Below the pieces are notes generated by a model. That model was given only the letters and a program-made list of their open reading frames with translations, did not search any database and was not told the origin of the DNA. Positions 10,352-13,881 of a stretch of DNA of 64,000 nucleotides are shown piece after piece; the stretch's first letter is position 1; every line of letters starts with the position of its first letter. The translations under genes were made by a program, and so were the position numbers. This DNA comes from an uncultured Methanosarcinales archaeon. Its GTDB lineage: Archaea; Nanobdellota; Nanobdellia; Woesearchaeales; UBA11576. Location of the stretch: contig CAYOQS010000004.1 in the NCBI GenBank assembly GCA_964406185.1, positions 72,616-136,615 of the forward strand, in the 5' to 3' direction.

Positions 10352-10406
10352 TTTTTTGTTTTTTTCTTTTTCTTTTTTTTCTTGCCGCTCAGGTCATTTA
10401 TGGTGT

Positions 10407-10925
10407 ATGGATATGAAAAGAGAGATGAAAGGAAAGAAGGGCCCTGCAACACCCAAAAGTTCCCTGCGCATACTGAATACGAGGGAAAAGAAAGAGCTCA
10501 ACCAGAGGATATATGAGCAGTGGGGCTGCACGCTCGATAAGGATATGGTTTTCCTGATGAGCAACAAGGGAAGGCTTTACGTTTGTGACCGGGATGTCGG
10601 TATGTTGGATTTCTCCAGGCTCAGGGTGGACAGCATGGGGCTTTACGTCGCGACTGTGGATGAGAAAGGTGCCCGGCTGAGCATCGAAGGCAGCCAGCTT
10701 CTCGGCTCTCATGCAAGTAAGAATGTGATCGAGATAGATTATAATTGTGTGCGTGACTGGTTCAAGGGACATGACCTGGATGCAGGAAGTAAGGGTATAG
10801 GTTATGCTGAAGGTTTCGTGATTCTCAAGAGCGAAGAAGGTGATTTCCTGGGATGCGGGAAGGTGACTGATAAAGGCATCCTCAACTTTGTCCCTAAGGC
10901 GCGTAGGGTGGCTGAGGATTCTTGA
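10407..10925 (+). CDS. Putative Nip7-like pre-PUA/PUA RNA-binding protein
   Basis: The N-terminal LRILNTREKKELNQRIYEQWG and the C-terminal GFVILKSEEGDFLGCGKV...ILNFVPKARRV resemble archaeal Nip7 or PUA-type proteins. The family call is tentative. The start was moved to the internal ATG because the track N-terminus lies in a T-rich tract. Confidence 0.45.
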   Translation: MDMKREMKGKKGPATPKSSLRILNTREKKELNQRIYEQWGCTLDKDMVFLMSNKGRLYVCDRDVGMLDFSRLRVDSMGLYVATVDEKGARLSIEGSQLLGSHASKNVIEIDYNCVRDWFKGHDLDAGSKGIGYAEGFVILKSEEGDFLGCGKVTDKGILNFVPKARRVAEDS

Positions 10926-10928
10926 TTC

Positions 10929-12149
10929 TTACACGCCGAACATGTGGTGCCTCAGCACTGTCATCGCGAGGAACAGCTTGTGGTCTACCAGCTCTCTCCT
11001 TCCCTTTTCAGGCCCTCGTGCTGCTGTGCCGCTCTCTGCTGTCCGGTGCATGTCGTTTGACCTTATCTGCAGATCGACAGGCATCTTGACTCCTATGAGC
11101 TCTTGGGTGAACCTGTCTGTGGGCAGGCTTACAAGTGTTGCGTGGAGCGACCGGTAATCGTTCTCTTTTGGCTCTGCTATGTAGTCCGCGAATCTTGTTA
11201 TCGGGAACTTCTCCTTGAACCATTCCATTATCTGGTAGCAGGTGTCTGTGTCCGGCGTGATTATCCTCATGCCGAACTTGTCGTATATGCTTCTTCCGTT
11301 GTCCTCGATGAGCCGTTCCACCTGCTCTTTTCCTATCGTCTCTTCAAGCAGGGACATGTTCTCCATGACTGCCTGGATGTGCCTTGACTGTTTGACCCTC
11401 TTGGCTGACAGCCTTGCAGCGACTTTCTCTGCTTCGCTTGCAGGCTCTTTTGTCCTTATCCTTACAGATAGCACTTTGGGCAGTGCCCTGCTCTCGCTGG
11501 CTAGCTGTTCAAGGTACAACGGCGAGTATATGTATTCCCTTGCGCTTGCGTAGACTCCTTCCATCCTCTTTTCGAGGTTCTTGTTGGCGTAGGTTCCGCA
11601 TGTTTCGCAGTGTATCCTTTTCTTAGGTCTTTTGTTGCCCTTCCTGCGTCTGGGCAGCTTGAATGATGTTGTATCCGGGTTGATTATGTGCGCGTCTGTG
11701 AACCTGATGTGCTCTGTGTATGACTCGTCTTTGTTGTCGTATGCGAACATGCCTGATGCCTTGTACTCTCCGCAGAGCTTGCAGTAGAGCGCGACCTGCC
11801 TTGCGTACATTATCTTGGAAGGGGATTCGTCAGGCATGAAAGTGGCCTTTACGACTCGCTGGAGGAACCGGAGGTTTGCCCATCCGAATTCCATGCTCTG
11901 CCTGTACGCCCGTACGCATGCAGGGTTGGTCAGCTCCTGTATCTCAGAATGGGGCGGCAGGGTATTGTGCTTCCCGACGTAGATCAGCGCGTCTCTCAGC
12001 TTGTCATCTGAGAAGTCGTTGAGCAGGTAGTCTATCTCTCCTGTCTTTACATAGGAGGGGTTTGCTGCCAGCTCTTCATAGTACTTCTGTATTGTCGGAA
12101 GCAGTGCTAGTTGCTTGTTTATCCTCTGTGGCAATCCTACTATCTGCAT
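10929..12149 (-). CDS. RelA/SpoT-homologue (RSH) synthetase-like nucleotidyltransferase with a novel N-terminal Zn-ribbon region
   Basis: The C-terminal ~170 aa carries RSH synthetase motifs: VRIRTKEPASEAEKV, DKFGMRII, DYIAEPKENDYRSLHATLV and VDLQIRSNDMHRTAESG. The N-terminal ~230 aa contains CKLCGEY...CETCGTY and a basic RRRKGNKRPKKR patch. Confidence 0.75.
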   Translation of the reverse strand: MQIVGLPQRINKQLALLPTIQKYYEELAANPSYVKTGEIDYLLNDFSDDKLRDALIYVGKHNTLPPHSEIQELTNPACVRAYRQSMEFGWANLRFLQRVVKATFMPDESPSKIMYARQVALYCKLCGEYKASGMFAYDNKDESYTEHIRFTDAHIINPDTTSFKLPRRRKGNKRPKKRIHCETCGTYANKNLEKRMEGVYASAREYIYSPLYLEQLASESRALPKVLSVRIRTKEPASEAEKVAARLSAKRVKQSRHIQAVMENMSLLEETIGKEQVERLIEDNGRSIYDKFGMRIITPDTDTCYQIMEWFKEKFPITRFADYIAEPKENDYRSLHATLVSLPTDRFTQELIGVKMPVDLQIRSNDMHRTAESGTAARGPEKGRRELVDHKLFLAMTVLRHHMFGV

Positions 12150-12264
12150 ACTTGAACACCTTTATACCCCCTCTACTCCCCAGAATCAGGTGTTTCATAA
12201 AGAAAAAAGGATGTTTATATAGTTTTCGGGCACTTTTTTGGGTGCTTTTTCTTCAGTTCTGGTC

Positions 12265-12738
12265 CTATTCCGCATAGGTCGTGAAGTTCCAGGCGTCATC
12301 TCCTACATAGTGGAGGTTCAGGACTATCTTGCCTGCTTCCATCTCCTGTATCTCTTCTTTTGAGAACAGGCTCTGTCCTATCGCTACGGGCTTCAGGTTT
12401 TTCTCGTCAACTATCGCCACTATGTCACCTTCCTTTACTTCCGCATCGACTCCTGTTATTCCTGGCCGCATCATGTCCGCACCTTTGGCTGCGTAAGGCA
12501 CTGCACCCATGTCTATTATGATGTTCTTGAGGAAGTTGTTCTTGAGCACGAGCCTGAGGGCGGGTATGAGAAGGTCTTCCTTGTAGAAGAATACGAGGTT
12601 GCCGTCCTTGAGTATGTATGTATCTTCTGCGAGGGTCAGGAAGTCGTCTTTTGAGAAGTATTCTTCCAGTCCGTATTTCTCTTTCAGCTCTTTGTTGAGC
12701 CCTTTTATGTCTTTCTTGCTCAGTGTCACCTGTTTCAT
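12265..12738 (-). CDS. PUA-domain RNA-binding protein (MCT-1/Tma20-like)
   Basis: 157 aa. The C-terminal PUA pattern is GADMMRPGITGVD...GDIVAIVDEKNLKPVAIGQSL. Confidence 0.8.
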   Translation of the reverse strand: MKQVTLSKKDIKGLNKELKEKYGLEEYFSKDDFLTLAEDTYILKDGNLVFFYKEDLLIPALRLVLKNNFLKNIIIDMGAVPYAAKGADMMRPGITGVDAEVKEGDIVAIVDEKNLKPVAIGQSLFSKEEIQEMEAGKIVLNLHYVGDDAWNFTTYAE

Positions 12739-12774: not shown

Positions 12775-13881
12775 TCAGATTTCTTGGAGTATTTCCGGCA
12801 GTCTTTTCATGTCCTCTATGGTGTAGTCTACATAGTCGAACTCTCTTTTTCCCTGGCTTTCTGCCCACGGGCCGTACCTGAACCAGACGGTCTTCATCCC
12901 CAGCTCTTTGGCGAGCACAAGGTCTGCCTGTGGCTTGTCCCCGACCATGACGCACTCTTCGGGTTTCACGTCCAGTTTTTTGAGTATGATGTCGTAGAAT
13001 CTCCTGTTAGGCTTGTTTATCCCGACTTCATCGCTCACCACTATCGTGTCTATGTATGGTCTGAGCCCGCTTTGGTCTATACGCTGCTTCTTAGGCAGCA
13101 TGTCTCCGTCCGAGTCGGTCATGACACCTATCCTGTATTCTTTCTTGAGTTCTATGAGCACTTCTTTGGCTCCGGGCATCGGCCTGGCTTTCTCGAGGAC
13201 GTTTTCCCAGTATATCATGGTGAGCTCGTCTATCTCTTTCTCGTCTGCCTCGATGCCGACCTCATCGAAATATTCCCTGAACCACCTGTGGCGGTCGTAC
13301 ATGCTTGGTTTTGAGCCTTTGCCTTTGTCGCTGTATCTGAGGTCTATATCCTCCAGGAGTTTTATAGTGGTAGGTCCATAAATGCCGTGGCGTTCAGACA
13401 TCAGCTGGGCTATCTTATGGTGTGCGTTTTCTATGCCTGGTTTCATGTCGCCCAGGGTGTTGTCGAAGTCAAACAGCACTGCCTTGACCTGCGGCTCTAT
13501 GGTGACTGTAACCTTCTGACCTGGCTCCCTGAGCTTCCTGACCAGCTGCCTGTTGATGTGCGCGGCGGCTTTTTCTGCCCTGAAACCGAATGTCCTGTCA
13601 GAGCTGAACTCTGACATCCTGAGCACCACCTCCCTGTCAGAGCTGAACTTCTTGTTGGCCTGGAATGGTATATCTTCTGACATTCCTCCTGCTTCGATAC
13701 GCATGTTCAGTCTCGTGTGGTTCTTGACAAGTCTTTTCAGTTCTTCAGGTGAGAAGTCCGCTGCCACTGCGACGATGCAGTCTCCGTCAGGGCTCAGTTC
13801 ATCGTCCTTGGTGAACTCGAGTGTCCTCTTGTGGCTTGCGAGTATGTTCCGGTGGCCTTTTGCTGTGAATGTGTATGCCAT
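12775..13881 (-). CDS. DUF371-domain / HAD-superfamily phosphatase fusion protein
   Basis: The N-terminus FTAKGHRNILASHKRTLEFTKDDELSPDGDCIVAVAAD matches the DUF371 pattern. The C-terminal half has HAD motif I (LFDFDNTL), motif II (GVMTDSD) and motif IV (MVGDKPQADL). Confidence 0.8.
   Translation of the reverse strand: MAYTFTAKGHRNILASHKRTLEFTKDDELSPDGDCIVAVAADFSPEELKRLVKNHTRLNMRIEAGGMSEDIPFQANKKFSSDREVVLRMSEFSSDRTFGFRAEKAAAHINRQLVRKLREPGQKVTVTIEPQVKAVLFDFDNTLGDMKPGIENAHHKIAQLMSERHGIYGPTTIKLLEDIDLRYSDKGKGSKPSMYDRHRWFREYFDEVGIEADEKEIDELTMIYWENVLEKARPMPGAKEVLIELKKEYRIGVMTDSDGDMLPKKQRIDQSGLRPYIDTIVVSDEVGINKPNRRFYDIILKKLDVKPEECVMVGDKPQADLVLAKELGMKTVWFRYGPWAESQGKREFDYVDYTIEDMKRLPEILQEI

Follow-up and report, generated by a model that had tools for sequence, protein, structure and literature searches.

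An RSH-Type Synthetase with an N-Terminal Zinc-Ribbon Module in a Variable Chromosomal Slot of One Archaeal Genus

Introduction

The gene described here lies on the minus strand of a 64,000-nucleotide stretch of archaeal DNA, which we call the window (assembly GCA_964406185.1, contig CAYOQS010000004.1, positions 72,616 to 136,615; order Woesearchaeales in GTDB). An initial annotation, made from the letters alone, had proposed that it encodes a RelA/SpoT homologue (RSH) synthetase domain fused to a novel N-terminal zinc-ribbon region. We find that its 406-residue product belongs to the RSH superfamily and, by architecture, to the class of small alarmone synthetases (SAS). We refer to this protein and its orthologs as type A; two extremely divergent RSH-fold forms, types B and C, occupy the same slot in related genomes. 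Our favoured reading, to which we give a probability of about 0.5, is that type A is a stand-alone, synthetase-only, Rel-like alarmone synthetase whose new zinc-ribbon module serves regulation or targeting.

Results

A Synthetase-Only RSH Protein

The type-A gene and its parts, in window positions, are as follows.

10929-12149, minus strand: whole gene, 406 aa, 'type A' zinc-ribbon RSH synthetase, stop included (open reading frame (ORF) list and translation)
11829-12149, minus strand: N-terminal helical region, residues 1-107, family-specific (AlphaFold2 (AF2) helices 8-104, mixed confidence)
11523-11828, minus strand: Cys4 zinc-ribbon region, residues 108-209, beta-rich (AF2 model, invariant Cys)
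11772-11783, minus strand: first Cys pair, C123-x-x-C126 (invariant in alignment A5)
11616-11651, minus strand: basic loop RRRKGNKRPKKR, residues 167-178, in the zinc ribbon ahead of the second Cys pair
11598-11609, minus strand: second Cys pair, C181-x-x-C184 (invariant in alignments A1, A3 and A5)
11016-11486, minus strand: RSH synthetase (SYNTH) domain, residues ~222-378 (PF04607, PDB profile, Foldseek)
11424-11456, minus strand: ATP-phosphate motif R232-x-K234-x3-S238-x3-K242, beta1 and helix (R232, K234 and K242 invariant)
11292-11423, minus strand: helical insert peculiar to the family, residues 243-286, parting the ATP-binding helix from the Asp strand (low AF2 confidence)
11265-11282, minus strand: D290-K-F-G-M-R295, metal-binding Asp and second adenine-stacking Arg (D290, G293 and R295 invariant)
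11142-11195, minus strand: R319-x-x-D322 and G-loop P327-K-E-N330-D-Y332-R-S-L-H336, acceptor site (alignment with RelP)
11058-11075, minus strand: D359-L-Q-I-R-S, catalytic acidic position, Asp for the usual Glu (family alignment)
10932-11000, minus strand: C-terminal helix RRELVDHKLFLAMTVLRHHMFGV, residues 384-406, family-conserved (AF2 helix 380-404, low confidence score)

All the motifs quoted in the initial annotation are present in the 406-aa ORF, and their numbering was checked: CKLC at 123-126, RRRKGNKRPKKR at 167-178, CETC at 181-184, R232-x-K234-x3-S-x3-K242, DKFGMR at 290-295, RFADYIAEPKENDYRSLH at 319-336, DLQIRS at 359-364 and MHRTAESG at 367-374. The synthetase assignment is borne out by Pfam, in which RelA_SpoT (PF04607) matches with E=4.2e-18 and 66.1 bits against a cut-off of 27, and TIGR00691 is matched by all nine family members (9/9). 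As had been noted, the hydrolase (HD) domain is missing; Pfam and NCBIfam detected no HD, TGS or ACT domain in the protein, which therefore keeps the SAS feature of a synthetase domain alone. Searches of PDB with phmmer and with a family profile matched RSH synthetases only. The profile matches to Rel, RelP, RelQ and RelA range from E 5e-16 to 1e-5 and include:

S. aureus Rel: E 5e-16
B. subtilis Rel: E 1e-15
RelSeq: E 1.5e-14
RelP: E 2e-14
RelA: E 8e-12
RelQ: E 1e-6

The chains of toxic SAS (toxSAS) enzymes, namely CapRel, FaRel2 and Tas1, were not matched by this profile even at E<=10. An AF2 model built from nine family members (predicted local distance difference test score (pLDDT) 68, predicted template-modelling score (pTM) 0.62) led to the same enzymes. 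Its top 50 Foldseek matches are RSH synthetases throughout, with Rel, RelP and RelQ at E ~1e-6 and probability 1.00, and CapRel, FaRel2 and Tas1 are not among them. The initial annotation had allowed that the domain might belong to another nucleotidyltransferase family or might prove to lack its catalytic residues. Pfam, the PDB profile and Foldseek all lead to RSH, and the catalytic residues are present on alignment, with an acidic Asp at the Glu position.

The Catalytic Domain

The N-terminal region had been put at ~230 aa. The fusion itself stands, but the RSH fold starts near residue 222, leaving a family-specific part of ~210 aa. Pfam and phmmer alignments reach only residues ~253-377, because the ~44-residue insert (243-286) parts the ATP-binding strand and helix (229-242) from the rest of the domain; K242 and D290 are 48 residues apart, compared with 19 for K88 and D107 of RelP. 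By alignment with RelP, and with the residue roles summarised in PMC7983052, the active-site residues were mapped as follows.

R232, K234, K242: RelP R78, K80, K88; ATP-phosphate binding
D290: RelP D107; metal-binding Asp
R295: RelP R112; second Arg stacking on adenine
Y332, N330, A371: RelSeq Y308, N306, A335; guanosine contacts
D359: RelP E174; second acidic residue of the Mg2+ site

Type-A orthologs are full length and share just 39-54% identity with the 406-aa protein, and they show little or no variation at the mapped donor, metal and guanosine-contact residues. R232, K234, K242, D290, R295, the acidic residue at 359 and Q361 are invariant. So are R319, D322, P327, K328, Y332 and H336 of the acceptor site, and the G-loop Tyr and purine contacts as a whole (P327, K328, N330, Y332, H336, A371) are conserved; the segment 319-336 is near-identical to 'DYIQHPKENGYRSLH' of RelP. 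After the catalytic strand, type A carries an AExGxAA signature, which we take to be of the long-RSH type rather than the RelP/RelQ type.

The Asp that the initial annotation had noticed in place of the usual Glu of the EvQIRT strand is real, fixed and clade-specific. We counted this position, two residues before the Gln of xQIRT, over 168 synthetase domains. It is Asp in nine of ten type-A members and Glu in the most divergent one (P0012, 39% identity), and thus acidic in all of them; among the other RSH domains, Glu occurs in 153/158 and Asp in 0/158. Because Asp occurs there in none of the 158 other domains, activity or metal use may differ. In RelP the contact between Glu and Mg2+ runs via two water molecules (PMC7983052). 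With such a water-mediated contact, Asp is plausibly tolerated, and the shorter carboxylate may be compatible with catalysis.

The N-Terminal Module

The zinc-ribbon region is modelled by AF2 as strands at 113-123, 128-137, 161-164, 178-181, 192-195 and 203-208, with pLDDT ~70-90, and closes with a conserved aromatic segment, EGxYASAREYxY. The two CxxC pairs described earlier (CKLC and CETC) are indeed there, and all four Cys are invariant. The basic patch is present too, from R167 to R178. As a loop it is basic in most members and variable in sequence, and it is weak in P0004 and P0012. The zinc-ribbon segment has a net charge of +8, and the whole protein is unremarkable in this respect, with isoelectric points (pI) of 6.5-9.1 across the family.

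A search restricted to residues 1-215 among 5.8 billion proteins returned family members only as homologs, with no fusion to other effectors. Likewise, an exhaustive search of 1.84 billion representatives gave no N-terminal match outside the family among the best 150 hits. A separate AF2 model of the N-terminal part (pLDDT 65) had no significant PDB match by Foldseek: the best, to the zinc-ribbon 'fingers' of USP deubiquitinases, had E=0.26, which is not significant, and CapRel (7ZTB) reached only E=1.6. The region had been called novel, and by the region search and Foldseek of its predicted structure it is without detectable relatives. We conclude that the N-terminal module is new as far as the searches used can see.

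Distribution and Relation to Other RSHs

Among the 1.84 billion representative proteins, type A makes up about seven clusters at 50% identity, beyond which scores drop from 270 to 63 bits into generic RSHs; the top matches outside the family are mostly long RSHs. The carriers are labelled Woesearchaeota or Nanoarchaeota in their sources. Across 151 genomes (144 genera) of the GTDB order, type A was found in the window's genome alone and a ~650-aa long RSH in 53 others. Within the genus, seven of 12 species genomes have type A, and a long RSH is also present in all of these carriers (7/7).

The initial annotation had suggested looking elsewhere in the genome for a cognate hydrolase. The window's genome (1.5 Mb, 19 contigs) does encode one, as the HD_4 domain (2e-46) of a 661-aa long RSH on contig C7 (locus L001, 739-2724, plus strand), which also has RelA_SpoT, TGS and ACT domains. 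Its HD/ED motifs are intact, and an alarmone hydrolase is therefore available in the genome. The gene for this long RSH adjoins a Kae1-like gene in divergent orientation.

The statement that RSH genes are rare in archaea fails in this lineage, in which long RSHs occur in ~35% of the order's genomes and in 16/18 of the family. They have been reported before in about 42% of Woesearchaeota genomes (PMC8407392), and a 2011 survey found archaea with scattered small RSHs only (PMC3153485). The frequency in the order is at odds with the older view of archaea as being without long RSHs.

In a tree of 168 SYNTH domains, many 'short' metagenomic rows of which are probably fragments with unreliable length labels, type A forms a separate clade. 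This has a support of 99 in the approximate likelihood ratio test (SH-aLRT), a stem of 0.96 substitutions per site and no supported sister. Judged by this tree and by the NCBIfam YjbM model, which scores 20.7 bits against a cut-off of 320, the 406-aa protein has no placement in a described SAS subfamily (RelP, RelQ, RelV, actRel etc.). Nor does the tree point to duplication of the genome's own long-RSH SYNTH domain, since it puts type A outside the long-RSH sequences of the order. Horizontal acquisition, which had also been proposed, is not demonstrable: the slot is conserved genus-wide, the gene evolves at a rate like that of its neighbours, and it has no supported sister among RSHs.

The Chromosomal Slot

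The features flanking the type-A gene in the window are these.

12265-12738, minus strand: upstream neighbour, 157-aa PUA protein (PF01472 3.5e-18; adjacent in all loci examined)
12150-12264, minus strand: 115-nt spacer containing a pair of TATA-like boxes (ACTATATAAAC, GGTATAAAGG) and, ahead of the ATG, a purine-rich stretch (read from sequence)
10356-10925, plus strand: downstream neighbour, RsmF-type PUA-like, convergent (PF13636 1.3e-4; adjacent in every type-A locus)

Every type-A locus has the same order: a DUF371-HAD gene, the PUA gene, type A, the convergent PUA-like gene, a gene for a ~250-aa protein, and aIF5B. Beyond these lie Trm1 and Cdc6 on one side, and an AsnC regulator with glycogen and glycolysis genes on the other. 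No mobile or defence genes were found at the type-A loci examined. The neighbours are PUA-type on both sides, as had been said, with PF01472 upstream and an RsmF-type PUA-like protein downstream; the PF13636 match of the latter is below the Pfam cut-off in the window and is recognised in orthologous loci. These PUA neighbours are a case of conserved synteny, which does not imply functional coupling.

The 115-nt spacer is probably the type-A gene's own promoter, as predicted from its TATA-like boxes. Because there are 115 nt upstream of the gene and its stop codon is 3 nt from that of the convergent PUA-like gene, no room is left for a partner gene. Indeed, the window locus has no partner or antitoxin ORF adjacent to type A, and the search for an antitoxin, which the initial annotation had recommended, turned up no adjacent small ORF there. 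At another type-A locus (P0005, GCA_043819495.1), an extra 182-aa ORF (L005, 7271-7819, minus strand) lies between the RSH and PUA-like genes; it has no Pfam match and is unrelated to the type-B partner described below.

Between species, type A shows 46-53% identity, compared with 50-58% for DUF371-HAD, 58-61% for the PUA-like protein and 55-63% for the ~250-aa protein, and the four segments of the type-A protein are equally conserved. Type A is thus an ordinary gene under purifying selection, with a rate like that of its neighbours, as expected of a stable cellular function.

Two minor points concern the neighbours themselves. For the PUA-like gene (10356-10925), the listed TTG start gives 189 aa and the orthologs have 158-163 aa; translation probably begins at an internal ATG some 20-30 codons further on. 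In the genus, DUF371 forms a fusion with a HAD phosphatase (window 12775-13881, minus strand); in genome G109 of a sister genus it stands alone, as a 166-aa protein (L034, 949-1449, plus strand). The order DUF371, 145-157-aa PUA protein, RSH-like gene is conserved across genera.

Types B and C in the Same Slot

Four congeners without type A (G154, G155, G162 and G163) have a 375-417-aa ORF, type B, at exactly the type-A position. The genes in question are the following.

L036 2739-3989, minus strand; L038 2794-3945, minus strand; L037: type B (P0160, P0161; alignment A4)
L036 2192-2716, minus strand; L038 2256-2789, minus strand: ~175-aa candidate type-B partner gene (protein P0162)
L034 2068-3171, plus strand: type C, 368 aa, without the zinc-ribbon Cys (P0173; G109, sister genus)

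Type B has no Pfam match, and comparison of single sequences with type A or Pfam was not significant. It carries two Cys pairs and the motifs RVKSAGRYxxKL, SIxDxYA, CY, PxxR...YKxLQF and ExQIKT. Profile-profile comparison of types A and B with hhalign gave 83.6% probability (E=8e-6, 199 columns), with both Cys pairs and all the core motifs in register. Moreover, the type-B profile alone picks up long-RSH synthetase cores in about 19 further genomes of this order, the best at E 5e-8. We therefore conclude that type B is an RSH-fold protein of the same architecture. Type C, which follows the DUF371 and PUA genes, is a full-length homolog of type B (hhalign, 99.3% probability, E=2e-20), and a B-like form occupies the slot in a third genus (G166). 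In one type-B frame (L078, G155:C37:7338-8588), the extended frame contains a single in-frame TAG; the 416-aa ORF of P0160 is intact, so the TAG lies in the upstream extension.

Types B and C share with type A the slot, the length and a collinear series of motifs (R-x-K...K, D, CY, PK and ExQIKT), and type B has the two Cys pairs as well. They differ in that Pfam RelA_SpoT does not recognise them and in that the G-loop is replaced by PxxRxxxxGRxExYKxLQF; the Cys are missing from type C, and type B is accompanied by another gene. This gene, of ~175 aa, lies directly downstream of type B and of the G166 form in 5/5 cases, and is missing from the type-A genomes and from G109. The sole Pfam match of its product is sub-threshold, to the N-terminal asparagine amidohydrolase PF14736 (1.4e-4). 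No match was found for it in PDB or by PADLOC, nor for types B and C by PADLOC. We consider it a candidate type-B partner (immunity, antitoxin or accessory enzyme).

Of the 12 congeners, seven have type A, four type B and one, with a 74%-complete genome, neither; A and B never occur together. The flanks of the window's genome resemble those of type-B species more than they do those of the remaining type-A species, with identities of 74-79% versus 70% for AsnC and 71-75% versus 64-69% for PUA. This similarity, together with the B-like forms in sister genera, implies that the slot changed form repeatedly, or that an ancestral pair was sorted by loss.

Discussion

We favour a stand-alone Rel-like alarmone synthetase because type A has the full set of donor, metal and guanosine residues, an affinity for housekeeping enzymes only, purifying selection, a core chromosomal location and a hydrolase in its genome. 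The initial annotation had offered two options, an alarmone synthetase with a new domain and a nucleic-acid-directed pyrophosphokinase. Both stay as the leading hypotheses; the horizontal acquisition that was part of the first does not.

As a synthetase, the protein would bind ATP between R232 and R295, with the phosphates held by K234 and K242. Mg2+ would be coordinated by D290 and, via water, by D359, and a purine nucleotide stacked on Y332 would receive the beta-gamma pyrophosphate at its 3'-OH. The product would be a (p)ppGpp- or (pp)pApp-type alarmone, which the HD domain of the genome's long RSH could degrade. The N-terminal helical region and the Cys4 zinc ribbon with its basic loop may form a regulatory or targeting module that, for example, docks on RNA or the ribosome, or gates the ATP site in cis. 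Activity as a catalyst, the choice of acceptor and the part played by the zinc ribbon are in each case predictions from sequence.

The closest known likeness is to the long Rel enzymes, which give the best profile and Foldseek matches (S. aureus Rel 7OIW, B. subtilis Rel 6YXA/8ACU, RelSeq 1VJ7). The shared motifs are R-x-K...K, DxxGxR, PKxNGYxSxH, xQIRT, AExGxAA and the R...D of the bifunctional-type RxKD. Compared with long Rel, however, the 406-aa protein is without HD, TGS, zinc-finger domain (ZFD) and ACT; it has Asp for the catalytic Glu, a 44-residue insert, and AA(R/W)GxxK where long Rel has AAHWxYK; and it has the new N-terminal module and a long separate branch. Like RelP and RelQ (6EWZ, 6FGX, 5DEC), it is synthetase-only, with a single catalytic domain, and exists beside a hydrolase-bearing long RSH. 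Its G-loop is almost the same as that of RelP, and the Foldseek TM-scores of RelP and RelQ, normalised to the target, are 0.4-0.47. But RelP and RelQ are bacterial homotetramers of ~210-230 aa with C-terminal oligomerisation helices and no zinc ribbon, and the 406-aa protein has the long-RSH-type AExG motif rather than a SAS-type tail.

Several observations weigh against a Rel-like alarmone synthetase. Type A is confined to part of one genus, and its slot switches between very divergent forms, one of them with a partner gene, which is unusual for a housekeeping enzyme. In the catalytic domain, the catalytic Glu gives way to an Asp seen in none of 158 other RSH domains, the ATP-binding helix is followed by 44 inserted residues, and the Lys of RxKD is not kept (RFAD in the 406-aa protein), so that the acceptor-phosphate patch may be smaller. 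The confidence of the AF2 model is moderate (pLDDT 68). Finally, there is precedent for zinc-finger-like domains as gates of toxSAS enzymes that modify tRNA (PMC11782079).

This last point also speaks for the strongest rival, which we regard as possible but distinctly less likely than a Rel-like synthetase: that type A is a pyrophosphokinase directed at RNA and working in the manner of CapRel. Its zinc ribbon and basic loop would then bind RNA or gate the ATP site in cis, the gate being opened by some trigger, for instance a protein of a virus or of the host, and the three types would represent alternative conflict cassettes in one variable slot. In toxSAS enzymes that modify tRNA, pseudo-zinc-finger domains gate the ATP site both in cis (CapRel) and in trans (ATfaRel2) (PMC11782079), and by analogy such a gate is a plausible role for the zinc ribbon. 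The net charge of +8 in the Cys4 ribbon and its basic loop would suit the RNA-directed reading, as would the RNA-binding or translation genes next door, the altered catalytic Glu and the lost RxKD Lys. The slot speaks for it as well: it holds mutually exclusive, extremely divergent forms whose occurrence is out of step with how similar the flanking genes are, the distribution is patchy as well as narrow, and a ~175-aa gene is tightly linked to type B (5/5).

The sequence affinities nevertheless argue for Rel. In PDB the family profile matches only housekeeping (p)ppGpp synthetases and no toxSAS at E<=10, the Foldseek top 50 are without CapRel, FaRel2 or Tas1, CapRel matches the N-terminal model at E=1.6 only, and the Rel guanosine-contact residues are conserved. 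Type A evolves no faster than its neighbours, its overall charge is unremarkable, and PADLOC gave only a partial domain match of the window protein to the candidate system PDC-S33 (1.5e-8). CapRel SJ46 does resemble type A in combining an RSH synthetase-type domain with a zinc-finger-like domain in one polypeptide. But relative to CapRel SJ46 and FaRel2-ATfaRel2 the domain order is reversed, with the zinc domain N-terminal in the 406-aa protein. This domain is a true Cys4 ribbon without YxxY rather than a pseudo-ZFD, and no similarity to CapRel was found in sequence (family profile) or structure (N-terminal Foldseek). The gene sits in a core chromosomal slot next to aIF5B, Trm1, Cdc6 and genes of glycolysis, and neither a prophage nor a defence island surrounds it. 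Indeed, none of the toxSAS or CapRel features that we looked for was found, whether affinity for toxSYNTH domains, an adjacent antitoxin or YxxY pseudo-ZFD, or a mobile or defence location.

A bolder version of this idea takes the slot as a whole, and we hold it to be somewhat less probable again. The slot might be a variable effector locus, whose interchangeable RSH-fold pyrophosphokinases modify RNA (tRNA CCA ends or rRNA) instead of making free alarmones; type A would have a fused Cys4 gate, type B a ribbon plus the ~175-aa partner, and type C no Cys. If true, archaea would have invented a zinc-domain-gated translation switch of their own, independently of CapRel, and this switch might serve virus defence or the relationship between symbiont and host.

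It is unlikely that type A is a catalytically weakened or inactive RSH-fold protein, acting as a nucleotide- or alarmone-binding regulator or scaffold. One might suspect this from the replacement of a near-universal Glu by a residue found at that position in no other RSH domain (0/158), from the insert beside the ATP-binding helix, from the absence of the G-loop signature and of the Arg after the Asp strand in types B and C, and from the presence of a fully equipped long RSH in the genome. However, the other donor, metal and acceptor residues are invariant at 39-54% identity, a pattern that is difficult to account for unless the protein is a catalyst. Asp retains the carboxylate, Glu persists in the most divergent member, and types B and C keep both acidic residues and R-x-K...K.

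We reject, as very improbable, that the zinc ribbon is a duplicated ribosomal eL42 (L44e) that would place the enzyme at the ribosomal E site or the tRNA CCA end: a weak NCBIfam L44e match (residues 115-192, E=0.015) covers nearly the whole model, and the Cys-pair spacing (about 55 residues) and the basic stretch ahead of the second pair are similar, but the match occurs in just 1/9 family members, hhalign of the zinc-ribbon segment with 20 eL42 of the same order gives 0.04% probability, and eL42 is absent from the Foldseek matches of the N-terminal model, none of which is significant.

Three features of type A are new: the N-terminal module of a helical region and a true Cys4 zinc ribbon, the fixed Asp at the catalytic Glu position, and the insert after the ATP helix. 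Also new is that, in one archaeal genus, one and the same conserved slot accommodates alternative RSH-fold forms that have diverged extremely. A long RSH together with a lineage-specific synthetase-only RSH would imply a two-enzyme alarmone system, assembled independently in DPANN archaea and comparable to Rel plus RelP/RelQ of Firmicutes. As a small, soluble-looking protein, type A offers a direct route to asking whether archaeal RSHs make alarmones. It could also reveal the effect of Asp at the catalytic Glu position, and how a true zinc ribbon compares with the pseudo-zinc-fingers of toxSAS. Types A, B and C in one slot form a natural series of RSH-fold divergence, and the failure of Pfam to recognise B and C suggests that counts of RSH-like enzymes in archaea are too low.

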